DNA of 64,000 bases from an uncultured euryarchaeote (lineage in GTDB: Archaea > Thermoplasmatota > Poseidoniia > Poseidoniales > Poseidoniaceae): positions 5,004-69,003 of the forward strand of contig CAXCCF010000003.1 in the NCBI GenBank assembly GCA_963981035.1, read 5' to 3'. Positions 12,551 to 33,449 of this stretch are shown here, in pieces. Positions within the stretch are counted from its first letter, which is position 1; every line of letters starts with the position of its first letter. The notes under the pieces were generated by a model. That model was not told the origin of the DNA, searched no databases, and saw nothing but the letters and a program-made list of their open reading frames with translations. A program made the position numbers and the translations under genes.

Positions 12551-13462
12551 TCACTCTATACCAGATAGCAATGTCACAACTCTGATGGAATCGTGTAAAT
12601 CTTCACTCACCCTTGCTCCAAGAATTACCTGTGCATCTACATCTAAGGCAGCAGTAAACATGCTTGCAACTGTTTCAACTTGACCGATTGTCATTCCAAG
12701 GCCACCTTCTATTTGGATTAAACATCCTTTGGCTCCACCAACATCTAATTCAGCCAAAGGTGCCATCATTGCAGAATTTAATATTCCCTCTGGATCATCT
12801 GCTCGGCCCACTCCAACCAGCATAGTTGCCCCTCCTTTGGTGTCAACAATTGCTCGTAAGTCCATCAAATCTAGATTTATCAAACCCATTCGTAGCAATG
12901 TTCGAACTAAGCCATCGACCAAATCTTCAATCCATTCTGCACCCATTTGCCACGCAGTTCCTTTTTCTCTTGCTTGCCTTGCGAGTCTTTCGAGAGATAA
13001 TTGTACTGTAATATGGGCATTATTCTGTAAACGTTCAAGTCCTTCCGCTGCTATTTTTGAGCGTGTTTCTTGAACTTCAAATGGTAGTGCTGCGACAGAA
13101 AGAACTACCGCACCAGACTGCCTTGCTTGTCTAGCAAATTCATGACCCGCACCCGTACCAGAACCACCTCCTAATCCTACCAACAATACAACTAATTCCA
13201 CATCCTCTAAGATTGTCCGAGCCAGAGGGGATAATCCTCTCATTCTTTGTTCTGCTAGTGGAGGTAATGCTGCACAACCCATTGAATCAAGGGTATGCCC
13301 TAATCGTAATACATGAGCCGATTCACATCCGGATAAACTTGAATCATCGGCATCGATTAGAACTACATCTGCACCCTTGCCACACTTTTCATATGCCCTT
13401 TTTGCCCATGCACATCCCAATCCGCCAACGCCGGCAATTAGGATTTGTGAGGCTTCCATCAT
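12551..13462 (-). CDS. FtsZ/tubulin-superfamily GTPase, a divergent paralogue without a C-terminal tail
   Basis: ILIAGVGGLGCAWA (degenerate G1), LVGLGGGSGTGAG (tubulin signature), LINLDLMDLRAIV (T7-like NxDxxD), and GGATMLVGVGRA...GAKGCLIQIEGG...VVTLLSGIE (FtsZ C-domain). I moved the start to MMEASQ (13462) to avoid overlapping the upstream TPR gene. Confidence 0.75.
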   Translation of the reverse strand: MMEASQILIAGVGGLGCAWAKRAYEKCGKGADVVLIDADDSSLSGCESAHVLRLGHTLDSMGCAALPPLAEQRMRGLSPLARTILEDVELVVLLVGLGGGSGTGAGHEFARQARQSGAVVLSVAALPFEVQETRSKIAAEGLERLQNNAHITVQLSLERLARQAREKGTAWQMGAEWIEDLVDGLVRTLLRMGLINLDLMDLRAIVDTKGGATMLVGVGRADDPEGILNSAMMAPLAELDVGGAKGCLIQIEGGLGMTIGQVETVASMFTAALDVDAQVILGARVSEDLHDSIRVVTLLSGIE

Positions 13463-13518
13463 CCTAATGGCGGCGTTGAACCTCAATGAACTTTGGCAGT
13501 AACTTGCGCTTTGAGATT

Positions 13519-13857
13519 TTACTCGACATAACGCAAATAACGTCGCCTTGCATCCCTTGCCCAAGCATTATCAGGTTCCAATTCTAAAACAATATCATAA
13601 TACTTTATTGCATTCTCAAATTCAGATAAATGACGACCATACAAATGGCCTAAATTAGACAATACAGGAATACATTTGTAATCTTGTTCTAGCATTTTTA
13701 GCAATAATTCTTCTGCTGCACCGAGAGAGTTTTTTAACATTAATTCCTCTGCTTCATCGAGTTGTTCTAACTGCTCAGAACTCAAATTGTAAATGTTATC
13801 GAAGGTATGACTTGACACTCTCTCACCAATCTGGGGGAGAAGTAAGCAGTGAATCAA
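13519..13857 (-). CDS. Small TPR-repeat protein
   Basis: 112 aa. LSNLGHLYGRHLSEFENAIKYYDIVLELEPDNAWARDARRRY is a typical TPR helix pair. It lies directly upstream of the FtsZ-like gene on the same strand. Confidence 0.6.
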   Translation of the reverse strand: MIHCLLLPQIGERVSSHTFDNIYNLSSEQLEQLDEAEELMLKNSLGAAEELLLKMLEQDYKCIPVLSNLGHLYGRHLSEFENAIKYYDIVLELEPDNAWARDARRRYLRYVE

Positions 13858-13994: not shown

Positions 13995-14867
13995 ATGCAA
14001 GCAATGTTTAAGGGGTCTATCCAAGTCGCTAAGAACATCTTGGGTGTGGCTATGCGAGTTGGCTCTTTTTCTGCTAGAACTACACTTCTTCTGGGACTTG
14101 TAGCGCTATTGCTCATTCCCAGCCTTGCAACATCATATCACACCGGTATCGGCGGAGAACAAAGCAATGCAGGAGATACCATCGATAATGTGGCAAAACA
14201 AGGATGTTTGTGCCACAATGGTGCTGCCGATAATTCAATTCAAGTAATCCTTGACCAAGTTCCATATGCTTGGAATGCTGGTGAAACCTATGAATTCAAA
14301 TTACAATTGATTGGAGGTCCTGCGGGTGGAACTTACACTGCTGGATTCTCAATGCAGATTAGTGCTGGAGAACTCTCTGGAACCGATTTGCAGAATTGGC
14401 AAGAAGATGTGACAACACTCACACATACCGATGCATCTGCAAGCCAAGATGAAAAGTCATGGATTCTATCATGGACTGCTCCTGCTGCTGGAGAAGGTAG
14501 TGTCAACTTCTGGATTACTGGTAACTCAGTATCGGGAGATGGTTTGCCTGGTGCTGATGATAAATGGAACCAACTATTATTCGCACTTCCAGAAGGAGAT
14601 GCAGATAGTATCGCAATGGGAACAAGAACATTGTTTGCTGGCGATGGCAATGTCAGCCCACCTGAACCTGTTTCTCATGGAGTAGACTTACACCACATGG
14701 GTGCTGCACTTAGAGCTCATTGGCTTGGACTACTCGGTTTTAGTGCTGTTATCAGCGTAGTTGTTTTCTCGGGAGTATTGCTCAGATATGGTTTCTCGAC
14801 CTCATACAAGGGCCGCAGTAACTTATTGCGACTTCGCTATAAGATGAAGAGAAGAGGTGATCAATGA
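13995..14867 (+). CDS. Exported, C-terminally anchored protein with a GCxCH beta-sandwich (reeler-like?) domain; first gene of the Rieske/cyt b operon
   Basis: Signal-like N-terminus (TTLLLGLVALLLIPSLATS), KQGCLCHNG, SWILSWTAPAAGEGSVNFW, and a C-terminal TM (LGLLGFSAVISVVVFSGVLL). Its stop overlaps the next start (ATGA). The start could instead be the internal MRVGSF. Confidence 0.6.
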   Translation: MQAMFKGSIQVAKNILGVAMRVGSFSARTTLLLGLVALLLIPSLATSYHTGIGGEQSNAGDTIDNVAKQGCLCHNGAADNSIQVILDQVPYAWNAGETYEFKLQLIGGPAGGTYTAGFSMQISAGELSGTDLQNWQEDVTTLTHTDASASQDEKSWILSWTAPAAGEGSVNFWITGNSVSGDGLPGADDKWNQLLFALPEGDADSIAMGTRTLFAGDGNVSPPEPVSHGVDLHHMGAALRAHWLGLLGFSAVISVVVFSGVLLRYGFSTSYKGRSNLLRLRYKMKRRGDQ

Positions 14868-15310
14868 TGGATGATACAATCTCCACATTATTGCGTGGCG
14901 TAGCAGACGGGAGTATTACTGTAGATGATGCCCGAACTGCTCTACAAGATGCATCCTTAACCGAGGAACAAATGCAGAGTGCGATTGACAAAGGAGTATT
15001 CAATCCTGCAGAACCAGGTTCAATCATTAGCGCCACATTGGCTCCTTCCGGTGCATCAAATTTGACAATGTTATTCTTTGTTTGGGGATTGTTTTGGGCT
15101 TGCTACTGGTCATTTTCCATGCTCTATGGTTTGTTTAACCACTGGGACCAACAACAATTATCATTCCACCTTGCAATGACACTCACCACCATCATCCTGA
15201 TGGGAATTATCTATCTCAAATACGTCCTACCTGATACAATTATTGTCAAGTATGCAAGAAATAAATTCGTGCCTGAACATCAAAAGGATTGGCAGGAGTA
15301 CAAATGGTGA
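14864..15310 (+). CDS. Small membrane protein (soluble N-terminal helix pair plus two TM)
   Basis: 148-aa ORF translationally coupled on both sides. Hydrophobic segments are LTMLFFVWGLFWACYWSFSMLYGLF and LAMTLTTIILMGIIYL. Confidence 0.5.
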   Translation: MMDDTISTLLRGVADGSITVDDARTALQDASLTEEQMQSAIDKGVFNPAEPGSIISATLAPSGASNLTMLFFVWGLFWACYWSFSMLYGLFNHWDQQQLSFHLAMTLTTIILMGIIYLKYVLPDTIIVKYARNKFVPEHQKDWQEYKW

Positions 15311-15315
15311 TTATT

Positions 15316-16164
15316 ATGTCTCGTGAATATGACCTAAAACCTGCTCCTAGTAGCGAAAACTCCTCTGCGAAATCTGTTGGCGATTCATTAATCAATAGAC
15401 GCCAATTCATCAGTTATGGTTTTAACACTGCCACAGGTGTTTTGGCTGCATCACTTGGAGTTCTAGGATTTGCTGCATTAATTCTGCCACCTGGTGGTGG
15501 CGGCGGTGGAGACCTTGCTGCAAAATATTGGGCAAAGGGTCGTGAAGATGAGGCTTGGTATGGTCCAATGCACGAACAGCCAATGAAGAAATCTGATTTC
15601 GTTGCTGAAGCCGCAAAAAGTTCAACTGGTACATCTGGTGCATCTGGTGTTTGGAACGGAGTTCCGATTGTAGTTACATATGTGGATCATGCAAAGAATG
15701 CAGGTAGCCCAGTAACCAATGGAAAAGCAAGGTTCCAATTTATGGAAGGATATGATGGAACTGGAAAGTATGTCGGACATTTTGATGACTTGGCTGATGC
15801 TGACTCGAGATTATTTCCATCGGAAAATTTGGTTATGATATTTGGAAGATGTACACATCTATGCTGTATTCCTGGTTGGCAATTAGTTTCTAACTCCTTT
15901 ACAGAAGATTCATGGACACCTGGAGGCGGCGACGATGGCGGAACTAAATTATTCTGTATTTGTCATTCATCCCGCTTTGACCCTACTGCTTTGGAAATGA
16001 ATGCAAATACAAACCGTTCTAATGGTTCCAACTTCAAATACGCAGGTATTAGAAGGTCTGGTGGACCTGCGCCTGTAGGATTACCAATTATTCCAGTAGT
16101 AGTAAATAGTGACATTATTGAAGGATTACCAGATTATGTGGATTGGTACACATATTGCGATTGA
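15316..16164 (+). CDS. Rieske [2Fe-2S] protein with a twin-arginine signal
   Basis: Box I CTHLCC and box II CICHSSRF. INRRQFISYGF followed by a hydrophobic stretch forms a Tat signal/anchor. A poly-Gly hinge (PPGGGGGGD) is present. Start placed at MSREYD, just after the upstream stop. Confidence 0.9.
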   Translation: MSREYDLKPAPSSENSSAKSVGDSLINRRQFISYGFNTATGVLAASLGVLGFAALILPPGGGGGGDLAAKYWAKGREDEAWYGPMHEQPMKKSDFVAEAAKSSTGTSGASGVWNGVPIVVTYVDHAKNAGSPVTNGKARFQFMEGYDGTGKYVGHFDDLADADSRLFPSENLVMIFGRCTHLCCIPGWQLVSNSFTEDSWTPGGGDDGGTKLFCICHSSRFDPTALEMNANTNRSNGSNFKYAGIRRSGGPAPVGLPIIPVVVNSDIIEGLPDYVDWYTYCD

Positions 16165-16175
16165 GGTGAAATGAT

Positions 16176-17042
16176 ATGACAACAATGTTTTGGATTCTTT
16201 GGTTCTTCATCGCCTTCGTGGTGGTTCTCGTTGCCTTCACTCTACGTAAGGAATCAGAAGATATGCCTCGTAGAGATATTCTTCGCGCTGTTGAGTCAAC
16301 AGGAAAAATGGGTGTGGCTGAGAGGTCTTTCCTTTGGGTATTCTCTTGGCTTGACACTAGATTTAGATTACAGGATTATTGGAATATGTCAAAAGGTGCC
16401 TATTACAATATGCATAGACAAATGCCACTTACTCACGCTGAAAAATATAAATTGAGAATTATCTGGTATTGGTATCCATTATACTGCCTAGGTGGAATCT
16501 CTTTCCTTTCTTTCATCATTCTGGTCATCACCGGAACTGTTCTCGGAATTTTCTATGTTCCTGGAGGAGAGGGTGACCCTGCTCCTGCATATGCTAGTAT
16601 GCAATATATCATGACCGAATTACCATTTGGATATATTCTTCGAGCAGTTCACCATTGGGCAACCCACTTTATGGTTGCAAGTGTATTCTTACACATGTGT
16701 AGAGTATACTTTACTGGTGCATACCGAAATCCACGTGAGTTAAACTGGCTTATCGGAGTTGCTCTAATGTTCTTAACAATCTTCTTTGGTTATTCCGGAT
16801 ATTTACTTCCTTGGGATTCATTAGCATATGGAGCGGCTGTGATTGGAATCAACATGGCAAACTCATCACCATTAATTGGTAAGTTTGCCGCAACTGCATT
16901 ATTCTCCGGTACATCATTAACTCCCGGAACTGTGACTAGAATGTATTTCATTCACGTATTTATTCTACCTGTGATAGTGACTTTGTTGATCATTATTCAC
17001 TTGTTTATTGTCTGGGTACAAGGCATTGCGGAGCCACATTGA
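16176..17042 (+). CDS. Cytochrome b, N-terminal four-helix (b6-type) subunit
   Basis: RAVHHWATHFMVASVFLHMCRVYFTGAYRNPRELNWLIGV...FFGYSGYLLPWDSLAYGAA. Helix D has two His separated by 14 residues (IHVFILPVIVTLLIIIH), which is the b6/Firmicute-type spacing. GAGGTGA sits upstream of the ATG. Confidence 0.92.
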   Translation: MTTMFWILWFFIAFVVVLVAFTLRKESEDMPRRDILRAVESTGKMGVAERSFLWVFSWLDTRFRLQDYWNMSKGAYYNMHRQMPLTHAEKYKLRIIWYWYPLYCLGGISFLSFIILVITGTVLGIFYVPGGEGDPAPAYASMQYIMTELPFGYILRAVHHWATHFMVASVFLHMCRVYFTGAYRNPRELNWLIGVALMFLTIFFGYSGYLLPWDSLAYGAAVIGINMANSSPLIGKFAATALFSGTSLTPGTVTRMYFIHVFILPVIVTLLIIIHLFIVWVQGIAEPH

Positions 17043-17059
17043 TATTGGAGGGTTAATTT

Positions 17060-19873
17060 ATGGGAATTGTAGAAAACCTTGGAAGAGTAGCTTCCTCCTA
17101 TATGGATGAAAAAGAAAACTTGCAAAGTGCTAGCATTAAGAGAAAGCGCACCCCGATGGGTCATGCGTTCTGGCCTCACGAAGTTCTTCGTGATGCAATT
17201 ATCTTCTCGTTTATGGCCGCCGTACTTCTGTTCTATGCATGGCTTATTCCTCCACCGCTACACAGTGCTGCCGACCCATATGCTCAAGCAGGATTCGTTT
17301 TCCCTGATTGGTATGTACTATTCTCATATGGATACCTACGTTGGGGAGAATATCTACCGCAATTCTCCGTCCCTACTGGATTTATTGGTGACATAGTAGG
17401 TCAGCCTGTATTCCCTTGGAACGCAGCATGGTGGGGAGCAGCACTTACAGGAATCCCAGTGGGTATTCTTACCCTTCCTCCATTGCTTGGTGGTAGAGAA
17501 AAGAGACCTGTTGAGGACCCTTGGTTTGCTAGTGCTGGTGTAGTTTATCTCGCTCACGTGTGGTTTATCTCGGTATTTTCAATCAATATTTTCTTGAAAT
17601 TATATGGAAATAATCGTTCTGATTATTGTAAATTAGATTCTCATGGTGACCTATTATGTGGTGTGAGAGACCCCTGGATTGCCGATTTATTCAATGCCAT
17701 ACCCTGGATATTAACTGGCATTCTTTTATGGATAGTGATTTATTTCGTCACTAGATCAATCATGGTAAAGGCATGGGGTGCAGGCTTTACTCCTGCACAT
17801 GGCAAGCAAATCATTGTCGGAGCATTGTTAGTTTCAACCGCAATTTCTGTTTCTACTTGGGATGTATATGACGATGGTTTCTGGGATGCAAAGGGATTAC
17901 TCACTATCGCTGATTACGAAGAACTTGAAGCGATGAGAACTCAACCTGTTGATGTTCACGTTCATTCTACTAACGAATTTACCGATACAAATGGTTGGTC
18001 TGAATCTGAAATCGTTCCAACCACTGCTTGGCTTGATTGGAATCTGTATCAACCCGCGCGATATATTATTACTGATTTTGGAGATGTTAATGGACATCAA
18101 GATGCAGCTAATGGAATAAATGCTGCAGCAACCTCTGATTCATTCTCTGGAGATTCTGCATGGGTTGCTACTGGGTCATTCACAGTTACAGAGGATACTA
18201 CCCTCTTCCCTGATGGACATCACAAGACTGTAGAAACAATCACTACAGATATTGCTTGTGAATACAGAGCTAGTGAAAGAAAAATCAATGATTTGTCAAC
18301 TGCAGATATGCTAAGTTCGACATTTGTTCTAACCGATTCTTCAGCAAATACCGTTTCTTCATTCACTGATTGTGAAGGAGCAACTATTGAACTCAAAGTA
18401 GGAACTTATGATTACGAAATGACAGTTCAAGCGAGTGGATTGCTAGCCCAAAATGCATCTATTATCACAGAAACTTCAATGATGATTTACTCGTTCCAGC
18501 CATTATTAGTGTGGGATAGTGATGCACCTGAAAGTCTTGCAGGAACAAGTGTTAATCTTTCTAGTTCAGAAGATATGGTTCTTGGACAAGGGAAATTCTC
18601 CGCAATAGAAAATCCATCATTCCATAGAAATCCTAAATCTCTGGATGCAAAATTAACCTATGCAATGTTCATCCCATGTTTGACATTTGGCGCACTTGTA
18701 TTCGTCATGCTTAGATATATGGCTCGTGGCTATGAGTTTGAGATGAACAAGTGTTACGGTTGTGACCTTTGTGATGATGCCTGTCCAGTTCGATTATTCA
18801 CTGGCGGAGATAAATTGAACATCATTTACAACTCTTGGAATAATGAAGATGACGGAGTTCCAATGTATTCATGCTTGACTTGTTCTGCTTGTACTAATGC
18901 CTGTCCACAACTTGTTGATTATGATTCATATGTTGATATTCGCCGTGGATTAATAGTTGGAGCATCTCAAGCCGAAATCCCTCACACTGTACTTCAAGCG
19001 GTTCTTTCTGCTGAGGCCGAAGAAGAAGCAGATGCTGACTTTATCGCAACAGAAGATTACCCAATCAACTCAAAGGTTGGATATTATCCTGGTTGTGTTG
19101 ACTATCTAGACCAAGAAATGGTTTTCTCCCATGTAAATGAAGGTGAGATGAACTTGGGCGACACAACAACTGCTGCTTTCACATTGTTTGAAGAAATGGG
19201 CAATGATGTCTCATACCTCGGAAGAGACTTCCTAAAGTGCTGTGGTCATGACCAAAAGTGGCAGGGACTTGACGAAGTATTTGACAAACTTAAGGCATAT
19301 AACCAACGCAAGATTGAGGAATCAGGAATAGATACTCTTGTTTCATCATGTGCAGAATGTTTCAGAACTTTTGCCCGCGACTATGAACTTGAAGGTGTTA
19401 AGGTAATGCATACTACCGAATATCTAATCGAGCAAGGATTTGACATGAATCTAAGTTCAGAGGAAACAACAGTGACCTATCACGACCCATGTAGAATGGG
19501 TCGACAAATGGGGATCTATGACGAGCCTCGTGAATTGATTAACGCTGTTGAAGGTGTTAATTTGGTGGAGATGGAACATAGCGGTGAAGATGCAATGTGT
19601 TGTGGTGTTTCCAGTATGATGTCTTGTAATGAAAATGCTCGCTCACTGCGTGTATCACGCATGGAAGAGATTCGTGCTACTGGCGCAGATACAATGATTA
19701 CATCTTGTCCAAAGTGTGTTTCTCACTTTGAGTGTTTGAAGTTTGAAGGCGATGAAAAGTATGCTGATATTGAAATTCTTGATATCGTATCATTCTTAGC
19801 AAAGCAAGTTGAAGAAAAGAAAACACAAGCAGTCTTAGCAAGTACTGATGCACAGAGCCCAATTAAGGTTTGA
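17060..19873 (+). CDS. Fusion protein: cytochrome b C-terminal/subunit IV-like membrane domain, a ~270-aa outside domain, a TM, then an HdrD/GlpC-like 2x[4Fe-4S] + 2xCCG cytoplasmic domain
   Basis: The N-terminal part has FVFPDWYVLFSYGYLRW (a PEWY-type Qo motif) and about five TM segments. From ~18740 onward come CYGCDLCDDACP and CLTCSACTNACP, then two CCG domains (PGC...KCCGHD...SSCAEC and DPC...MCCGVS...TSCPKC). It is a single uninterrupted 937-aa frame with GGAGGG upstream. Confidence 0.85.
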   Translation: MGIVENLGRVASSYMDEKENLQSASIKRKRTPMGHAFWPHEVLRDAIIFSFMAAVLLFYAWLIPPPLHSAADPYAQAGFVFPDWYVLFSYGYLRWGEYLPQFSVPTGFIGDIVGQPVFPWNAAWWGAALTGIPVGILTLPPLLGGREKRPVEDPWFASAGVVYLAHVWFISVFSINIFLKLYGNNRSDYCKLDSHGDLLCGVRDPWIADLFNAIPWILTGILLWIVIYFVTRSIMVKAWGAGFTPAHGKQIIVGALLVSTAISVSTWDVYDDGFWDAKGLLTIADYEELEAMRTQPVDVHVHSTNEFTDTNGWSESEIVPTTAWLDWNLYQPARYIITDFGDVNGHQDAANGINAAATSDSFSGDSAWVATGSFTVTEDTTLFPDGHHKTVETITTDIACEYRASERKINDLSTADMLSSTFVLTDSSANTVSSFTDCEGATIELKVGTYDYEMTVQASGLLAQNASIITETSMMIYSFQPLLVWDSDAPESLAGTSVNLSSSEDMVLGQGKFSAIENPSFHRNPKSLDAKLTYAMFIPCLTFGALVFVMLRYMARGYEFEMNKCYGCDLCDDACPVRLFTGGDKLNIIYNSWNNEDDGVPMYSCLTCSACTNACPQLVDYDSYVDIRRGLIVGASQAEIPHTVLQAVLSAEAEEEADADFIATEDYPINSKVGYYPGCVDYLDQEMVFSHVNEGEMNLGDTTTAAFTLFEEMGNDVSYLGRDFLKCCGHDQKWQGLDEVFDKLKAYNQRKIEESGIDTLVSSCAECFRTFARDYELEGVKVMHTTEYLIEQGFDMNLSSEETTVTYHDPCRMGRQMGIYDEPRELINAVEGVNLVEMEHSGEDAMCCGVSSMMSCNENARSLRVSRMEEIRATGADTMITSCPKCVSHFECLKFEGDEKYADIEILDIVSFLAKQVEEKKTQAVLASTDAQSPIKV

Positions 19874-19915
19874 GCAATATCAACTGCTAATTCAAGCGAC
19901 CCCTATTGCTAAGAA

Positions 19916-20611
19916 GTGCTGGTGCTAGCGCTATTCATGAACAGACCTGCATTGTATGTACTTACAATTGGCATTGGTTTGTACATCAGTGCTACGGGCC
20001 TGAATGGAATTATTCCGGACAATCTTTCAGAGTGGCCAGTCAACATTTGGTGCTGGTCATTATTCGCATATATCTTCTTGAAAACCAATCGTAAAGAGCG
20101 TATTGAAATGCTAACTGTTTTGGCATTTGCAACTCCAATGGAATTATTTTTCAGCGAAGTTTGGCTAATCTATGAATATCAACGTGGACTAATGCCATTA
20201 TTTGTGCCAGTTGGACATTATTTTCTATTCGACCTAGGTAGAATTATGGCCAATAAAATGAGACCAAATCTAGCAATGATCTCCCTGACTCCATTTATTC
20301 CATTAGTTGTTTATGGAGTCTACAGTGGAGGCGACACATCAGCAGTATTCTTGCTAATCCTAGTACTTGCATTCACAAAATGGGGGCCGCAACCTCGATT
20401 ATATGCAGCGATGGCTTGGGCGGCCTTGGCAATGGAATTATGGGGTACATACCTGGCCAATTGGACTTGGGCAAATGAAGTCCCATGGACCGGATTAACT
20501 GCATGGAATCCGCCACTATTAGTCGGTGCTTTCTATTGTATTGGGGATGTGCTTGTCAACCTAAGCGTTGCCAAGTTTGAAAGAGAAGTGGCCAGCGAGG
20601 TAGTTGCATGA
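19916..20611 (+). CDS. Hypothetical polytopic membrane protein
   Basis: 231-aa ORF with 6-7 hydrophobic segments. Its stop overlaps the ferredoxin start (ATGA). The start is GTG at 19916 or ATG at 19937. Confidence 0.55.
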   Translation: MLVLALFMNRPALYVLTIGIGLYISATGLNGIIPDNLSEWPVNIWCWSLFAYIFLKTNRKERIEMLTVLAFATPMELFFSEVWLIYEYQRGLMPLFVPVGHYFLFDLGRIMANKMRPNLAMISLTPFIPLVVYGVYSGGDTSAVFLLILVLAFTKWGPQPRLYAAMAWAALAMELWGTYLANWTWANEVPWTGLTAWNPPLLVGAFYCIGDVLVNLSVAKFEREVASEVVA

Positions 20612-20940
20612 CCACCAGTGACGAGTTGGCTAAGAGGCGTGCGGCTGAGGCTTTGGCCATTCGCACATCCTTAAATCGTCAACGAGGTGAACAACGAGCT
20701 AATACAAAAGGTGGAGAAGGTACTGTTGCTTTTGTTAAGGCTGAGAAATGTATCGGCTGTGACCAATGTACAATCGTTTGTGATGATGACGCCATCGAAC
20801 TATACAAGGTCGATATGGTAAGTCAATTTATCAAAGTAGAGAGTAACCGTAAGGCCAAAATAATTCGTGATGCGTGTACTGGATGCAGGTTATGTGTACT
20901 CGCTTGCCCTACTGATGCGATAGTAATGATTGATTTGTGA
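20608..20940 (+). CDS. 2x[4Fe-4S] ferredoxin
   Basis: CIGCDQCTIVCDDDAI and CTGCRLCVLACPTDAI. Confidence 0.85.
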   Translation: MTTSDELAKRRAAEALAIRTSLNRQRGEQRANTKGGEGTVAFVKAEKCIGCDQCTIVCDDDAIELYKVDMVSQFIKVESNRKAKIIRDACTGCRLCVLACPTDAIVMIDL

Positions 20941-21252
20941 GTGATAATTATGACTTCAGAGAACAAAGATGATGCTCAAAGATTTGGTGGAGAATTTGGT
21001 CCATACCGTAAGGAAGGAACTCCAGGGGTTAGCCTTGGAACTTTCAAGACATTGGTTTGGACTTCCAATATTGGCGGGCTGTTATTATGTGCATTATCTC
21101 TTGAAATGTTATTTGTTCGTAAAATGTTCGGCTGGGGATTGTTAACGCTAATCGCAGCAGTAGTCATTGCTTTATTCCCTTCAAATTATGAAATTGTTGG
21201 GATGGGCGACGACGTAAATAGTTCTGATGAAGATCTACAAAGTCAGGGTTAA
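20941..21252 (+). CDS. Small membrane protein (two TM), last gene of the operon
   Basis: 103-aa ORF directly abutting the ferredoxin stop. TM segments are LVWTSNIGGLLLCALSL and WGLLTLIAAVVIALF. Confidence 0.4.
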   Translation: MIIMTSENKDDAQRFGGEFGPYRKEGTPGVSLGTFKTLVWTSNIGGLLLCALSLEMLFVRKMFGWGLLTLIAAVVIALFPSNYEIVGMGDDVNSSDEDLQSQG

Positions 21253-21325: not shown

Positions 21326-22549
21326 TCAAGTTTCTTGAGCATAATTCATTGCCTCAGAACCCATCGCTAACATCGATAACTCCGCTACTAATGCATGCCA
21401 TCCTTTAGCATGCTCACCATAGAGGTGACCAACTTCCGAATAATCTAAGAATTTTGCACTAGGAGAATTTAAATTATCCATATCACCTTTCTTGTCGTTT
21501 ATTCTATAGAACCAAGATGCTGCTTCACCATCGACCAAATATACAACAGGTTCTACTGGAGCACTTCCTTCATCATTTAGTAGAGTAGGCACTCCTTCTT
21601 GAATCAAGAAATTTTCAACATCTGCTCCACCTTTTGAGTACATCAGTTTCTTCATCTTTCGATTAGACAGTTCAAGCAATTCTTTTCCTTCTTTAACAGC
21701 CATAATACCAAGACCATAAGTGCCTCTATCATTCTTTACGAAAACAACTGGCTCTCTTTCAATTCCTAGTGATTCATATTTTTCTTTGATTTTTGAAATA
21801 AAATCGTCTACTTCTGCTGCCAATTTAATCCTACAAGCCTCTTGATCAAGACATTTGTCTTCTGAAACAAACCAACTCGTCATCAAATGCCAAGAATCTA
21901 TTCCCAATAACTCTGCAATTTCATCAATGTATTTTTGCAGACATGCATAATGCTCAGATTTCCTACGTCGGTGCCATCCCATACTTGGAGGTGGAGTAAC
22001 TTTGTTAGTTGGTAAACCAGGAACAATTCCTTCAGTAAGATCATTATTTAGTAAAATCAAACAAGGCTTTTCACCTTCAACCAGTAATTCCTCCTTTCCA
22101 TCTTCAATAATTAACTCAACATTTGATAATTGCAATGGACCTGATATACCTGCAAGTGAACCATGTCTGGAAAGTTCAGGTGAACCGATTGTACATCTAT
22201 AACCTGATAGTTCAAGCAATCTTTGTATTGTTGCAACATTTTCAACATATCCAATATTCCTTGTGTGAGATTCAGGGTAGAGATGAACCCATTTGCATTC
22301 AGAATCAATTCGCATTATGTGGTTCTTGAGAAGACTTGAAAGATGTTCCTCATCTTCTTTGGAAACATTGTTAAAACCAGCTGGAAAGTGATTTGCATCT
22401 ACAACTGCAACTTTCCATCCAGCATCTCTTACATCTACGCTACCATAGATTGGAATTGGAACTTGGCTTCGCTTCTTTGCCATCCACGCTGTTATTTCTT
22501 CTCTCTTTTCTTCTAAAATATTTGAATAATCATGCACATATGTCATCAT
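21326..22549 (-). CDS. gshA: Probable glutamate--cysteine ligase of the GshA (PF08886-like) type
   Basis: PIYGSVDVRDAGWKVAVVDANHFPAGFNNVS matches my memory of the family's N-terminal signature (SVDLRxxGxKxxPVDxNLFPxGFNN). The start overlaps the asnB stop (ATGA). Confidence 0.5.
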   Translation of the reverse strand: MMTYVHDYSNILEEKREEITAWMAKKRSQVPIPIYGSVDVRDAGWKVAVVDANHFPAGFNNVSKEDEEHLSSLLKNHIMRIDSECKWVHLYPESHTRNIGYVENVATIQRLLELSGYRCTIGSPELSRHGSLAGISGPLQLSNVELIIEDGKEELLVEGEKPCLILLNNDLTEGIVPGLPTNKVTPPPSMGWHRRRKSEHYACLQKYIDEIAELLGIDSWHLMTSWFVSEDKCLDQEACRIKLAAEVDDFISKIKEKYESLGIEREPVVFVKNDRGTYGLGIMAVKEGKELLELSNRKMKKLMYSKGGADVENFLIQEGVPTLLNDEGSAPVEPVVYLVDGEAASWFYRINDKKGDMDNLNSPSAKFLDYSEVGHLYGEHAKGWHALVAELSMLAMGSEAMNYAQET

Positions 22550-29295: not shown

Positions 29296-29363
29296 ATTTT
29301 GATATATTTTCAATTTGAAACACAATAGCAATCTATGATAAAGTGGTTATCTCTGCGTTGTAC

Positions 29364-32300
29364 ATGCGTGATAACTCTATTACCGTTGTGCCTACGAACT
29401 TGAAGCCAATAATTGTTGCACTTTTGATGTTGATTAGTTCATTAACACTAATCGCAAGCCCCGTTCAAGCAATAGGGCCAAATCAAAATGATATGGGTTC
29501 AGGTGGAGACTCTTCAGATAATACTACAAATGCCGTGAATTACATTTTTTCAGGACATTTGTCTGGTACAGGTGAATTGGACATTAACGATGACCACGAT
29601 TGGCTGCGAGTCAGTTTAAGTTCAAACCAAGGCGTTACCATGAGGCTAACATTCAATTCGAGTACTACACTACCTAATGGGACTACTACTGTAAATGATT
29701 TTGATTTGGGTCTGTATGATAACACAAGTCAAAATCTAATATCAAGCAGTTGGCAAAGTAATCCGGAAATAGTGACTACAAATGGATCAACTATTGCGCA
29801 TAATGGATTGGTTTACCTAGATATTAGCAGATATTCTGGCATTGGTAGTTGGAGTTTAGATATTTGGAAGTTTACTGTTAGTTCATCGAATGGAACTGGC
29901 GGAAATGGTACAGCAGTGCCAACAAATTGTGCTGGTTCCAATACGATTGTTTCAGATATTTTAGAATCTAATGACCAATTTTCAACAGCATCCCAAGCAT
30001 CTACCCTGCCGATTTCCTGTACTGGATTGAGCATCCACACCTCCACTGATGAAGATGTATTTGAGATTCAAATGTACAGCGGAGTCACATATTACTCCAA
30101 CCTTACATTTACTCATGCAACTGGAGATCTTGACTTCAAGTGGGAAACTGCGACTCAAGGATGGTTGACTTCATCCACTGGAACATCAAATAATGAAGCA
30201 ATGTCATACACTGCAACTGTTAACCAAACCACATATATCACTGTATATGGCTGGAGTTCAGCAACCAATACATATGACATTGATATTACAACGAATAACC
30301 CTGGTGGTGGCCAGAGTATGGAAAGTGTAGAGGTTATTTCTACGAGTCTAACAACTGCTTCAGTAACTTTTAGTGGGCTAAGCATTGGTACTAATTACAA
30401 TTATAATTATTCAAGTGCACAAGTAATGCTTGATGGATCTATCTCTTGGTCTAATCCTACCAATGTTTCATTTAATGCTACAGCAACTACAATGACATAC
30501 AATGTATCAGTATCGCAACCTCAAAGTGTTGAATCTGAATACTATATTGTTTCATTCTTCAAGGATTCAAATGGTGGACACATTGCTTCTGATAGCGATT
30601 ACACATATATCGAAATGGTGGAACTTGCTACTTCCTCTTCTTCAACAGGTGAAATATCACTAACAAATTTGTCCATTGGTACAGATTACTATCTAGAATG
30701 GTTGGTGGTTGACCAAATCATATTCGAGAATAGTTACAATGTTTCAATGGATGTGTATACTGCATTAAATGCATCTACTATAGATACTGATTACATGTCT
30801 TTCAATGCAACAGCATCCTCTTCTACAACTCAACTAAATTGGACTGGTCCAACTACACTGAATGACCACTTTTTCGCTGCAATTCTCTCTTACAATAATA
30901 CAGCGACCAATCATAGCACTGGTGGTGGATGGATTGGTTTCCATGAAGAGGATTTCACCCCACAATTGCCAACTCTGCTAATAGATAGCCATTCAACAAG
31001 TAGTACATCGTCTACAAATGATGTATCTGTCAAAGGATATGATTTAGTCACCGGTGATGATTACAAGTACCAAATCAGAATTACTGACAGCAGTGGTGCT
31101 TCTGTTTCCACTTTGAATTTGACTAACTTTACTGCTACAGCATCTAATATGAGTATGCCACTATATACATATGCAACTCCAACAAGCAGTGGAAATTATT
31201 GTGTTATTGTAGACTTATTCTCTGATGTAAATGTTCAATTAATCGGGGATTCAACTTGTTTCAATATCACTCTAGATGATGATAATGATGGTGTTGCAAA
31301 CGAACAGGATAATTGCCCTAACACTCCAATAGGAACAATTGTTGACCAAAATGGATGTGCAAGTTCTCAAAAGGATACCGATGGTGATGGCCACAATGAT
31401 AGTTTTGATGCATTCCCTACTGATTCAAGTCAATGGTCTGACGCTGATGGAGATGGATATGGAGACAATCCTAACGGAAATAATTCAGATGCATTCCCAA
31501 GTGATTCAAGCCAATGGTCTGATATTGATGGTGATGGATATGGGGATAATGCTGGCGGAAATAATTCAGATGCATTCCCTAATGACCCAACTCAATGGTA
31601 TGACGGAGACGGTGATGGATATGGAGATAATTCTGCAGGAAACAATCCTGATGAATATCCACTTGACTCAACTCAATGGAAAGATAGTGATGGTGATGGA
31701 TGTGGCGATAATAGTGCAGGAACTAACGGAGATCATTTCCCTAATGACCCGTCACAGTGTTCTGATATCGATGGAGATGGTCATGGCGATAACGCCAGTG
31801 GAACTGACCCTGATGAATTCCCAACTGACTCCACCCAGTGGCAAGATAGCGACGGTGATGGATATGGAGATAGTCAAACTGGAAATAACCCCGACAGATT
31901 CCCATCAGACAGCACTCAATGGAGTGATGCAGATGGTGACGGCTACGGAGATAATCAAGCTGGAACTAACCCAGATGCATTCCCTAATGATGGCACCCAG
32001 TGGGCTGACGCTGATGGAGATGGATTTGGAGACAATCCTACAGGAGCAAATGCTGATGCATTCCCTTCAGATAGCACTCAATGGATTGATGCTGATAATG
32101 ATGGCTATGGTGATAATGCAAATGGACTCAATGGAGACCAATGCTTAGACACTCCAGCAGGTAGTGTAGTTGATGAAAATGGTTGTGCTGAGAGCCAAAA
32201 GGATGATGATTTGGATGGAATAAACAACGCAATGGATGCTTGTCCAAATACTCCTGCCGGTTCACCTGTAGATACTACTGGTTGTGCTGCAAGTCAGGAA

Positions 32301-33449
32301 GATTCTGATGCTGATGGCGTAATGGATGCTTACGATGATTGTCCAAGTACGACTCTTGGCGACATCGTTGATGCTGCTGGTTGTGCAACATCACAATTGG
32401 ATTCTGATGCTGATGGAGTAATGGATGACCGCGACCAATGTCCAAACACAACGGCAGGAGCAAGTGTAAATGGATTTGGCTGCGCAAGTGATGAGAGAGA
32501 TACTGACGGTGATGGAATTGTTGATAGCAATGATATTTGCGACTCAACTCCTGTACTCGAAGTCGCTGATGAAGAAGGATGTTCAGATTCTCAGAAAGAT
32601 GATGATAATGACCTCTTTACCAATGATATTGACCAATGTCCACTAACTCCATTGGGTGAAGGCGTGGACGTAAATGGATGCTCAAGTTCTCAACGTGATA
32701 CAGATGGCGACCAAATAATGGATGATGCTGATATTTGCCCTGCAACACCAAGTGGTGAACAACCTGATATCAATGGTTGTGCTGATTCACAGAAAGATGA
32801 AGATAATGATGACATCTGGAATTCAGATGACCAATGCCCTGATACTGCTAGCGGTGAAACTGTGGACATCAATGGCTGCTCTGATCAACAAAAGGATGAT
32901 GATGATGACAGTATCAGAAATCATCTAGATAATTGTCCAAACACAGTTCCTGGTTGGATAGTGGATGATGAAGGATGTGCATTGAATCAAATTGATAGTG
33001 ACAGAGATGGAGTCAATGATGCAGATGATGCATTCCCTAATGATGCCAATGAAACCACTGATACAGATGGAGATAGTGTTCCTGACCGATGGGATGCCTA
33101 TCCAGATGACCCACTAAGAAGTCAACAAGAAGTAGTTGAAGAGAATGGAAATGTAATGATTTATGCAATCATTACAATTCTAATTATTGGAATAATTGCT
33201 GCTGTTATGTTTTTCCGACGTGATTCTCCGGTAAATCAATCGCCATTTGAAGTTGCTAATGCAGAACTTGATGCTGCTTCAGAAGCAGCGTTTGCTCAGT
33301 CTAATTCTGACAAATCATTGCCAGAACTTTCTACATTAGGAGAACCTGTACAGTGGGAAGAGAACGGTACTAATTGGTCAAGAGATGCAAATGGAACGTT
33401 ATCTTATTATGATCCAAACAGTGAAACATGGTTGCCATACCAGTCTTGA
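29364..33449 (+). CDS. Large surface protein: signal peptide, PPC-like and Ig-like domains, a long thrombospondin type-3 (TSP3) Ca-binding repeat array, a TM, and a W-rich cytoplasmic tail
   Basis: Signal KPIIVALLMLISSLTLIASPVQA. About 10 units of SQWSDADGDGYGDNxxGNNxDAFPxD, then Cys-bracketed DxDxDGVxDxxDxCPNT units. TM is IYAIITILIIGIIAAVMFF. Confidence 0.85.
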   Translation: MRDNSITVVPTNLKPIIVALLMLISSLTLIASPVQAIGPNQNDMGSGGDSSDNTTNAVNYIFSGHLSGTGELDINDDHDWLRVSLSSNQGVTMRLTFNSSTTLPNGTTTVNDFDLGLYDNTSQNLISSSWQSNPEIVTTNGSTIAHNGLVYLDISRYSGIGSWSLDIWKFTVSSSNGTGGNGTAVPTNCAGSNTIVSDILESNDQFSTASQASTLPISCTGLSIHTSTDEDVFEIQMYSGVTYYSNLTFTHATGDLDFKWETATQGWLTSSTGTSNNEAMSYTATVNQTTYITVYGWSSATNTYDIDITTNNPGGGQSMESVEVISTSLTTASVTFSGLSIGTNYNYNYSSAQVMLDGSISWSNPTNVSFNATATTMTYNVSVSQPQSVESEYYIVSFFKDSNGGHIASDSDYTYIEMVELATSSSSTGEISLTNLSIGTDYYLEWLVVDQIIFENSYNVSMDVYTALNASTIDTDYMSFNATASSSTTQLNWTGPTTLNDHFFAAILSYNNTATNHSTGGGWIGFHEEDFTPQLPTLLIDSHSTSSTSSTNDVSVKGYDLVTGDDYKYQIRITDSSGASVSTLNLTNFTATASNMSMPLYTYATPTSSGNYCVIVDLFSDVNVQLIGDSTCFNITLDDDNDGVANEQDNCPNTPIGTIVDQNGCASSQKDTDGDGHNDSFDAFPTDSSQWSDADGDGYGDNPNGNNSDAFPSDSSQWSDIDGDGYGDNAGGNNSDAFPNDPTQWYDGDGDGYGDNSAGNNPDEYPLDSTQWKDSDGDGCGDNSAGTNGDHFPNDPSQCSDIDGDGHGDNASGTDPDEFPTDSTQWQDSDGDGYGDSQTGNNPDRFPSDSTQWSDADGDGYGDNQAGTNPDAFPNDGTQWADADGDGFGDNPTGANADAFPSDSTQWIDADNDGYGDNANGLNGDQCLDTPAGSVVDENGCAESQKDDDLDGINNAMDACPNTPAGSPVDTTGCAASQEDSDADGVMDAYDDCPSTTLGDIVDAAGCATSQLDSDADGVMDDRDQCPNTTAGASVNGFGCASDERDTDGDGIVDSNDICDSTPVLEVADEEGCSDSQKDDDNDLFTNDIDQCPLTPLGEGVDVNGCSSSQRDTDGDQIMDDADICPATPSGEQPDINGCADSQKDEDNDDIWNSDDQCPDTASGETVDINGCSDQQKDDDDDSIRNHLDNCPNTVPGWIVDDEGCALNQIDSDRDGVNDADDAFPNDANETTDTDGDSVPDRWDAYPDDPLRSQQEVVEENGNVMIYAIITILIIGIIAAVMFFRRDSPVNQSPFEVANAELDAASEAAFAQSNSDKSLPELSTLGEPVQWEENGTNWSRDANGTLSYYDPNSETWLPYQS
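31275..33115 (+). repeat. In-frame TSP3 repeat region (protein-level tandem repeats, diverged at the DNA level)
   Basis: Repeated GAT-GGT-GAT-GGA-type codon strings encode DxDGDGYGDN and DxDxDGxxDxxDxCP units. They also create spurious out-of-frame and antisense ORFs. Confidence 0.8.

Follow-up and report, generated by a model that had tools for sequence, protein, structure and literature searches.

Positions 13995 to 21252 of a 64,000-nucleotide stretch of DNA (the window) from contig CAXCCF010000003.1 of an uncultured Poseidoniaceae archaeon of marine group II (MGII; GenBank assembly GCA_963981035.1) carry eight open reading frames (ORFs), which we call g1 to g8. On rechecking of their coordinates, boundaries and strand, all eight remain where they were first placed on the forward strand, with ATGA overlaps at 14864 (g1/g2) and 20608 (g6/g7) and no intergenic gap larger than 42 nucleotides. 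This agrees with the original prediction, made from the sequence alone, of eight co-directional and nearly abutting genes. Genes g1 to g5 encode the respiratory complex III of this archaeon, a Rieske/cytochrome b complex in which the subunit IV homologue (g5) continues into a cytoplasmic iron-sulfur (Fe-S) module of the HdrD type. The fusion is a chimera of two known kinds of enzyme, a Rieske/b6 complex and a membrane-anchored HdrD. Searches with the hidden Markov models of Pfam and NCBIfam back cytochrome b for g4, CCG and Fer4 domains for g5, and Fer4 for g7.

The g5 gene (17060-19873, forward strand) codes for a protein of 937 amino acids. Its first 237 residues (17060-17770) are homologous to subunit IV and the C-terminal part of cytochrome b, and include helices E to H. 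The Pfam model Cytochrom_B_C does not match this N-terminus, which is a weaker point of the assignment. When a profile of 17 MGII N-termini was compared with the PDB, however, all eight matches with E values up to 1 were to subunit IV of the b6f complex or to mitochondrial cytochrome b. With E values of 0.05-0.3 over helix E and the PEWY loop, these alignments are weak but wholly consistent in family. The same profile, searched against 1.8 billion representative proteins, reached distant relatives that do match Cytochrom_B_C (PF00032). Together, the PDB matches and the Pfam-positive relatives bear out the proposal that g5 starts as a subunit IV. The motif of the quinol oxidation (Qo) site, PDWY, occupies residues 82-85, is invariant in homologues, and aligns with the PEWY motif found in subunit IV and in mitochondrial cytochrome b.

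The C-terminal part of g5 is an Fe-S module that begins with a 2x[4Fe-4S] ferredoxin-type domain (residues 561-617, 18740-18910, forward strand; Fer4_8, Fer4_9 and Fer4_10 at 2e-7). This domain starts 15 residues past the sixth transmembrane segment (TM6), behind the conserved junction RGYEFEMNKCYGC, and its cluster motifs CYGCDLCDDACP and CLTCSACTNACP are present and invariant in homologues. Two CCG domains follow (residues 675-890, 19082-19729), which PF02754 matches in two stretches at 6.6e-24. Their ten cysteines (C679, 727, 728, 764, 767, 811, 847, 848, 883 and 886) constitute the full Hdr-type set and are invariant. The pattern Cx31-39CCx35-36CxxC thus occurs twice, with a longer first spacing of x47. 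Pfam matches, motifs and fold comparisons all confirm a complete HdrD-type module with two [4Fe-4S] clusters and two CCG domains.

By fold, the module is best matched in Foldseek by EtfD of Mycobacterium smegmatis, with LutA second and HdrB also among the best, and by sequence its best match is again EtfD (phmmer, 4.5e-23). The NCBIfam cutoffs for HdrB, HdrD, DsrK, GlpC and TfrB are not reached by g5, all scores being far below them, and the best partial matches to the module are TfrB, LdhH and GlpC. EtfD departs from catalytic Hdr proteins in two residues: the second Cys of CCG1 is a Thr, which goes with a linear [3Fe-4S] cluster, and CxHC has a His that ligates the noncubane cluster (PMC13083937). 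Neither substitution is found in the alignment of the MGII proteins, which carry KCCGHD and SCAEC opposite the ETCTGD and TCPHC of EtfD, and which thus lack its CT and CPHC ligand pattern. With CC and CAEC in these places and the ten cysteines invariant, the MGII module keeps the Hdr-type ligand set. Its membrane partner, by contrast, is a b6-type cytochrome b and not the NarI-type cytochrome b of HdrE.

Between the subunit IV part and the Fe-S module lies an MGII-specific insertion (residues 251-550, 17810-18709, forward strand) that consists of TM5, an acidic, beta-rich ectodomain, and TM6, which leads back to the cytoplasm. The ectodomain (residues 270-531, 17867-18652) has 41 D/E versus 12 K/R residues, and is modeled by AlphaFold2 (AF2) with predicted local distance difference test scores mostly of 77-92, falling locally around residues 384-388. 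Conservation is lower here than anywhere else in the protein, and the insertion is missing from relatives of 540-800 amino acids. In related Thermoplasmata, a Big_5 Ig-like domain is fused to the N-terminal subunit of cytochrome b instead. The outside decorations seem to be lineage-specific.

Hydropathy and charge counts agree on six TM segments with the acidic domain outside between TM5 and TM6, as first proposed. Short relatives have four TM segments ahead of the Fe-S module, compared with six in MGII, and parity is even in both cases. Most relatives examined also share the junction motif (R/K)xGY-x-(Y/F/W)-x-(L/M)-N-x-C-(Y/H)-x-C. A conserved cysteine pair (Cys190/Cys200) is located in an outside loop, and the flanking loops follow the positive-inside rule. 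Every cytochrome b protein has a helix E that starts on the membrane's negative side (n-side). Because TM parity is kept and helix E starts on the n-side, the Fe-S/CCG module is cytoplasmic, and the shared junction motif, the loop charges and the outside cysteine pair corroborate the placement originally made.

The fusion is genuine, as the original prediction had assumed. More than 120 protein clusters of 908-969 amino acids from independent assemblies match g5 over its full length at 60-97% identity, and the GTDB species representatives that encode a relative number at least 417. The best 80 of these (at least 417) relatives are essentially full-length, and nearly all are labeled as Poseidoniales, Poseidoniaceae or archaeal metagenome-assembled genomes (MAGs). 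Gene callers divide the fusion gene into pieces in three metagenomic contigs (L090, L091 and L092), which could be taken to mean that the 937-residue ORF arose by chimeric joining of two genes or by read-through from one into the other. However, two of these assemblies have coverages of 0.14x and 1.4x and are also broken in neighboring genes, and in the third, a polished long-read contig, homology runs on without lost residues through a single +1 frameshift. With full-length orthologues in independent assemblies, split copies that are frameshifts with uninterrupted homology, and short relatives that carry the same fusion and the same junction motif, we regard an artefact as ruled out for practical purposes. 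The frameshifted operon copies give rise to spurious 'unfused' proteins that serve as cluster representatives in protein databases. In addition, the contig NZEQ01000055.1 (L016) and protein P0075 present the archaeal operon under bacterial labels (Verrucomicrobiales and Flavobacteriales), and are probably mis-binned.

The N-terminal half of the cytochrome b is encoded by g4 (16176-17042, forward strand), which is of the b6 type with helices A-D and one extra N-terminal TM segment (PF00033, Cytochrome_B, 2.6e-40). A residue-level alignment to cytochrome b6 in the PDB (2e-42) places H159/H173 and H260/H275 at the four heme ligands. The H260-x14-H275 spacing in helix D is that of b6, and hence the initial assignment to this type is upheld. 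Conservation of particular residues was counted in 80 orthologues for g4 and in 73 for the Rieske ligands described below. Cys104, in the g4 motif LYCLGG, aligns with b6 Cys35 in FYCLGG; all 80 orthologues have it, and so do seven of eight wider-family members. Cys35 of b6 is the attachment residue of the covalent heme ci. Because the equivalent g4 cysteine is invariant, a covalently bound heme ci on the n-side is likely.

The C-terminus of g4 reads QGIAEPH (17031-17042). Every family member (L081, L083, L084 and L086-L089) ends its cytochrome b in QG(I/L/V)AEPH, with the terminal AEPH invariant, whereas b6 has RKQGISGP, and the b6 residues Arg207/Lys208 are replaced by Trp-x in the family. 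Further histidines are conserved on the n-side in the PLTH of g4 and the GHxFWPHE of g5. The AEPH terminus and these n-side histidines may ligate an additional n-side cofactor.

The Rieske subunit, g3 (15289-16164, forward strand), is a divergent bc-type [2Fe-2S] protein that matches TIGR01416 at 5e-9, under the curated cutoff. Residues 48-66 form a TM anchor, and the protein also has a twin-arginine translocation (Tat) motif (NRRQF), a GPAP loop and the two cluster boxes, CTHLCC (box I) and CICHSS (box II). A weaker point is that the Pfam Rieske model does not match g3. However, all 19 PDB matches of an MGII-only g3 profile are Rieske subunits of bc1 or b6f complexes, and CTHLCC and CICHSS align to Pfam-positive Rieske proteins of loci L084 and L086. 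Both boxes and their Cys/His ligands are invariant (73 of 73 orthologues), and the prediction of a Tat-exported Rieske protein is therefore sound.

The g1 gene (13995-14867, forward strand) probably has its true start at the ATG at 14052, and codes for an exported protein with a C-terminal TM anchor. Originally described as a GCxCH-domain protein, it is instead a Reeler-like or choice-of-anchor-V beta-sandwich (NCBIfam NF041895, choice_anch_V, 6e-25), and its AF2 model matches the reeler domain of F-spondin with a template-modeling score of 0.56 (Foldseek). The Foldseek comparison of this model reveals no assignable cofactor site, and matches to AmoB are weak. In the orthologue alignment, the GCLCHN motif (14205-14219) is invariant and sits in a low-confidence loop ahead of the sandwich. 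His242 is likewise invariant at the start of the C-terminal anchor helix (14709-14867), and the cytoplasmic tail LRYxFSTSYxGRSNxLRLRYK..RRGDQ is nearly so. This conservation suggests a cofactor and tight contact with another subunit, and g1 is a candidate for the partner of the Rieske protein on the membrane's positive side (p-side). The first gene of locus L089 shows no similarity to g1, which implies that the p-side partner is not conserved.

The g2 gene (14864-15310, forward strand) codes for a small two-TM membrane subunit of the DUF7318 type (Pfam, E = 0.011). It matches the DUF7318 protein that heads an operon of Geothermarchaeales (BLASTP, 5e-10), and in L086, L087, L088 and the P0264 locus the place of g2 is taken by a DUF7318 gene. 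This weak DUF7318 match was the only one obtained when the g5 N-terminus, the ectodomain, g1, g2, g3, g6 and g8 were compared with Pfam up to E = 10. The original prediction had also noted the lack of c-type cytochromes and cupredoxins. A motif scan of all eight proteins indeed finds no CxxCH, CxxxCH or CxxxxCH, and no cupredoxin family is matched in Pfam scans of the locus proteins, but the invariant g4 cysteine equivalent to b6 Cys35 had been overlooked.

The eight genes do not form a conserved operon as first supposed. Genes g1 to g5 are collinear in every locus with enough sequence, whereas g6 to g8 are a separate and often inverted unit. In most Poseidoniaceae (the window compared with L005-L080), g6-g7-g8 are on the opposite strand and convergent with g5. 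Only in close relatives of the window (L001-L004) are they co-directional with g1-g5. The inverted arrangement, which is the more common among the loci examined, is co-directional with gshA. The g6 gene always adjoins g7 in MGIIa and is absent beside the operon in MGIIb, and g7 occurs near the fusion in both despite the inversions.

Within this block, g6 (19916-20611, forward strand) codes for a 231-residue polytopic membrane protein that is translationally coupled to g7. It has no match in Pfam, NCBIfam or the PDB, and is highly conserved in Poseidoniaceae, especially in its Trp-rich segment WGTYLANWTWANEVPWTGLTAWNPP (20441-20530, residues about 176-205). This segment loosely resembles the WWD motif of heme-handling proteins. 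The g7 gene (20608-20940, forward strand) codes for a soluble 2x[4Fe-4S] ferredoxin of 110 amino acids without a TM segment (Fer4_21, an Fer4 dicluster model, 6e-14), in which eight cysteines are invariant and only two [4Fe-4S] motifs are present. Its label as RnfB in MGII annotations is rejected: TIGR01944 scores 49.3 bits against a cutoff of 68.7, and the anchor and extra domain of RnfB are absent. It is homologous to the ferredoxin after the CCG protein in L089 (7e-13). The last gene, g8 (20941-21252, forward strand), codes for a small single-TM protein that travels with g7 according to synteny. It is weakly similar (7e-5) to a 102-residue protein after the fusion in L088, and no similarity was found to the small protein of L089.

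The locus is embedded in conserved core-genome surroundings that include genes for RNA polymerase subunits, FtsZ, GshA, MeaB and a carboxyltransferase. A gene of the FtsZ/tubulin family (12551-13564, reverse strand) is located directly upstream and divergent, and is the same neighbor in MGIIb (L081) and in L083, L090 and L092. GshA, a glutamate-cysteine ligase (4e-100; 21326-22549, reverse strand), adjoins the ferredoxin block, as it does in most MGIIa loci and in L083, and is absent there in MGIIb L081. Farther away, a 3004-residue ORF (40973-49987, reverse strand) includes transglutaminase-core, macroglobulin (MG2/MG4), TSP3 and Ig-like domains, and two large ORFs of 1368 residues (29343-33449, forward strand) and 983 residues (50063-53014, reverse strand) have no Pfam match. 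All three are probably surface proteins.

The fusion is not confined to Poseidoniales: the survey of gene order finds shorter versions in Thermoplasmata, Geothermarchaeales, a Halobacteria MAG and others. These were recovered with the g5 N-terminal profile and with a search seeded by a short member. About 40 further clusters of 540-800 amino acids combine Cytochrom_B_C, Fer4 and two CCG domains, and come from Geothermarchaeales, Thermoplasmata (L086 and P0423) and metagenomes. Methanoperedens carries an unfused protein that is 47-50% identical to the g5 module. In Methanoperedens locus L085 (GCA_002839545.1), this unfused module heads genes for an HdrC-like protein, an HdrB-like protein, a 1020-residue HdrA-like protein, MvhD, a second HdrA-like protein and a second MvhD. 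The same downstream gene set is found in an archaeon (L084, GCA_964347835.1) in which the module is fused to subunit IV.

Locus L084 begins with a pentaheme cytochrome c in the position of g1, followed by a small g2-like protein, the Rieske protein, the N-terminal cytochrome b, the fusion, and HdrC-like, HdrB-like, HdrA-like and MvhD/FlpD proteins. In Geothermarchaeales (L087), the order is DUF7318, a Rieske-like protein, cytochrome b, the fusion, and FrhB-like, HdrA-like and MvhD proteins; genes for a second HdrD-like protein, GcvH and a GlcD-like protein are found downstream. A complete genome of Thermoplasmata (L086) has DUF7318, Rieske, Big_5-cytochrome b, fusion and polyferredoxin-MvhD genes, and the P0264 locus has a Reeler protein, DUF7318, a 260-residue protein, Big_5-cytochrome b, the fusion and a polyferredoxin. 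The Halobacteria MAG (L088) is likewise headed by a cytochrome c gene, which precedes DUF7318, a Rieske-like protein, cytochrome b and a subunit IV-Fer4 fusion without CCG domains. In L089, a subunit IV-Fer4 fusion is followed by a separate CCG protein, the ferredoxin and a small protein. Thus, the conserved core of the family is DUF7318, Rieske, the N-terminal cytochrome b and a subunit IV joined to an Fe-S domain. The p-side partner varies among a multiheme cytochrome c, a mono-heme cytochrome c and a Reeler-like protein, and the cytoplasmic partner varies among HdrABC/MvhD, FrhB, polyferredoxin, the ferredoxin of MGII, and the CCG protein with ferredoxin of L089.

The MGII complex resembles b6f and the b6-type bc complexes of Firmicutes and Heliobacteria in its split cytochrome b (b6 and subunit IV), its four His ligands with H-x14-H in helix D, a cysteine at the position of b6 Cys35, a Tat-exported Rieske protein and a PEWY-type loop, here PDWY. 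It differs from these complexes by having DUF7318 and Reeler-like subunits and no cytochrome f or c subunit. It also departs from b6f in a subunit IV with four core and two extra helices that is fused to cytoplasmic 2x[4Fe-4S] and 2xCCG domains, in the replacement of Arg207/Lys208, and in its own AEPH terminus. Among archaeal systems, SoxLN-CbsAB of Sulfolobus is a Rieske/cytochrome b analogue that likewise has no known c-type cytochrome, and its exported b-type CbsA replaces cytochrome c1. Its gene order, with an exported C-terminally anchored protein, a membrane protein, the Rieske protein and cytochrome b, is like that of the MGII locus, and it is not known to have an HdrD fusion. With HdrDE, DsrMK and mycobacterial EtfD, the complex shares a cytoplasmic module of two cubanes and two CCG domains placed directly after a TM helix of a heme b membrane domain. 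However, its membrane partner is a Rieske/b6-type unit with a Qo site instead of a cytochrome b of the NarI/HdrE type.

Previous surveys had reported that MGII has cytochrome b and Rieske proteins without a canonical bc1 complex, together with an orphan RnfB, and had described its complex III merely as "MGII-specific" (Tully 2019; PMC6336850). In Candidatus Angelarchaeales of the Thermoplasmata, hdrD-like and rnfB-like genes were noted near complex III (Diamond 2022; PMC9038741). Given the Thermoplasmata relatives L086 and P0423, this locus very probably belongs to the same family. That paper devotes one sentence to the neighboring genes and does not include the fusion, its topology, the heme ci cysteine, the distribution or the partner variants. 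No description of these features, or of the DUF7318 subunit, was found in the open-access literature. The originally claimed novelty of a Rieske/cytochrome b complex with this fusion therefore holds for the open-access literature, with the qualification that an hdrD-like gene beside complex III had been mentioned once (PMC9038741).

With all the components needed for Qo chemistry conserved, and no second complex III recorded for MGII in published surveys (PMC6336850), the complex must oxidize quinol and feed the oxidase. Quinol would be oxidized at a Qo site to which g4 and, with its PDWY loop, g5 contribute. One electron would pass through the Rieske cluster of g3 to an outside acceptor, which may be the Reeler-like g1 in place of the cytochrome c of its relatives. 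The other would cross the membrane through hemes bL and bH to the n-side, with heme ci located there as in b6f. The Fe-S chain of g5 might then act as a wire between the region of the n-side heme and quinone reduction (Qi) site and cytoplasmic carriers at the level of ferredoxin, with g7 as a partner. In MGII, the direction of flow would be from reduced ferredoxin through the Fe-S chain to heme ci/bH and on to quinone at Qi, and complex III would thereby become an entry point for low-potential electrons.

We tentatively prefer this model of an Fe-S wire with inward ferredoxin entry in MGII, and would put its probability just short of even. The wire itself is the most plausible role of the module because the first cubane is located about 15 residues past the last TM segment, as in EtfD, behind a conserved junction, and because the neighboring genes always code for low-potential Fe-S or flavin proteins. 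In the cryo-electron microscopy structure of EtfD, an unbroken wire links the CCG clusters to menaquinone by way of two cubanes and heme b, and the step from TM helix to CxxCxxC places the first cubane about 7 Å from the n-side heme b (PMC13083937). Ferredoxin entry at complex III has been proposed in one sentence for Angelarchaeales (PMC9038741). By analogy, such entry in MGII would echo the proposed route from ferredoxin to heme ci in b6f. Direct exchange between ferredoxin, whether stromal or cytoplasmic, and the n-side heme ci/Qi region has long been debated for b6f-type complexes in the context of cyclic electron flow.

Several observations temper our preference for the inward wire. Direct transfer from ferredoxin to quinone is wasteful of energy if it is uncoupled, and the sequence does not dictate which way the electrons flow. 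The module lacks the non-catalytic substitutions of EtfD and fits disulfide chemistry as well as electron transfer. The AF2 monomer of the whole fusion can be used for the ectodomain and some of the CCG region, but the N-terminal membrane part and the Fe-S region are poorly modeled and yield no cofactor distances. The proposed partner g7 is not within 8 kilobases of the fusion in L039, L045, L047, L056 and L060, and is usually on the opposite strand. Finally, a single cysteine underlies the assignment of heme ci, and L087 has a Tyr at this position.

A broader form of the preferred model would make the entire family a hard-wired ferredoxin:quinone reductase route via heme ci/Qi, in which anaerobic members couple the Qo site and HdrA-MvhD bifurcation through the fused HdrD module. 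We consider this generalization possible, although doubtful.

Electrons could instead leave the complex by the same path. Bifurcation at Qo would push the second electron via bL and bH into the HdrD module, and from there to ferredoxin or another acceptor, instead of or besides reducing quinone at Qi. The architecture of the complex is the same for both directions, and the PDWY motif is reportedly tied in general to low-potential quinones. Anaerobic relatives pair HdrA/MvhD, FrhB or polyferredoxin with a multiheme cytochrome c on the Rieske side, and the exit route suits these organisms because such gene sets fit the production of low-potential reductant from quinol and a strong external acceptor. 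For MGII the argument runs the other way: with archaeal 2-oxoacid:ferredoxin oxidoreductases, these cells should be a source of reduced ferredoxin and not depend on a supply of it. An electron on this route would also face the membrane potential and, after it, an uphill step to about -400 mV, and the retained heme ci cysteine and Qi-side residues suggest that quinone reduction persists. There is a precedent in the anammox bacterium Kuenenia (kuste4569-74 and kustd1480-85), in which Rieske/cytochrome b complexes carry an n-side redox module proposed to take the low-potential electron and are themselves proposed to produce NAD(P)H (PMC12954380). Unlike the archaeal complex, these are bacterial, their cytoplasmic oxidoreductase is a separate subunit of the flavin/nicotinamide (FAD/NAD(P)) type, and multiheme cytochrome c and hydroxylamine oxidoreductase-like subunits are found on the p-side. 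MGII, moreover, are described as aerobic heterotrophs (PMC6336850), and an outward flow of low-potential electrons is, in our view, unlikely.

The CCG clusters could also be catalytic. A cytoplasmic disulfide/dithiol pair, perhaps on a low-molecular-weight thiol or else on a carrier protein, would then be coupled to the quinone pool via the b hemes, as in the logic of HdrDE or DsrMK but on a b6-type anchor. Consistent with such Hdr-like chemistry, both CCG motifs keep CC...CxxC with the ten invariant cysteines and are free of the Thr and His of EtfD (PMC13083937), HdrB is among the best fold matches, and the closest unfused relatives are found in the HdrCBA-MvhD clusters of Methanoperedens. 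The second HdrD-like gene, GcvH and GlcD-like gene of L087 fit as well, as does gshA beside the g6-g8 block in most MGIIa. The latter adjacency may hint at a gamma-glutamylcysteine thiol pool, but it is absent in MGIIb. The cysteines are also less diagnostic than they appear, since CCG proteins that are not Hdr enzymes (LutA, GlpC, GlcF and SdhE) are generally known to keep them as well (PMC2754724). No NCBIfam equivalog cutoff for HdrB, HdrD or DsrK is reached. MGII are not methanogens and are not known to make coenzyme M or coenzyme B. In addition, sensitivity to oxygen is expected of catalytic noncubane clusters (PMC13083937). Taken together, these points make disulfide chemistry in MGII quite unlikely.

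Least persuasive of the functional alternatives is a role as a dehydrogenase anchor, which we judge very unlikely. Here, the module would accept electrons from a soluble flavoprotein, either the electron-transfer flavoprotein (ETF) of beta-oxidation, which is the donor to mycobacterial EtfD, or a dehydrogenase of the lactate, glycolate or glycerol-3-phosphate type, and complex III would provide the anchor and the quinone site. The strong match to EtfD by both sequence and fold (4.5e-23 by sequence), the second place of LutA by fold, and the partial NCBIfam matches to TfrB, LdhH and GlpC are what might be expected of such an anchor, and MGII live on proteins and fatty acids (PMC6336850). Nevertheless, neither the operon nor the related loci examined include a gene for ETF or a flavoprotein dehydrogenase. 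The recurrent neighbors are ferredoxins and HdrA/MvhD, and the diagnostic cluster ligands of EtfD are not shared.

Poseidoniales are among the most abundant archaea of the surface ocean. The locus joins two puzzles, the MGII-specific complex III and the orphan 'RnfB', into one machine, and its wider family exhibits interchangeable cytoplasmic partners, HdrA/MvhD bifurcation modules among them. If the Fe-S chain communicates with the n-side hemes, this would be a new link between the quinone cycle and ferredoxin-level metabolism, and estimates of energy yield would change. The complex would also be a test case for transfer from ferredoxin to heme ci and for the low-potential diversion of the anammox type. 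If the ferredoxin:quinone reductase reading is true, the family would represent a new class of archaeal energy-converting complexes that includes the only complex III of MGII.

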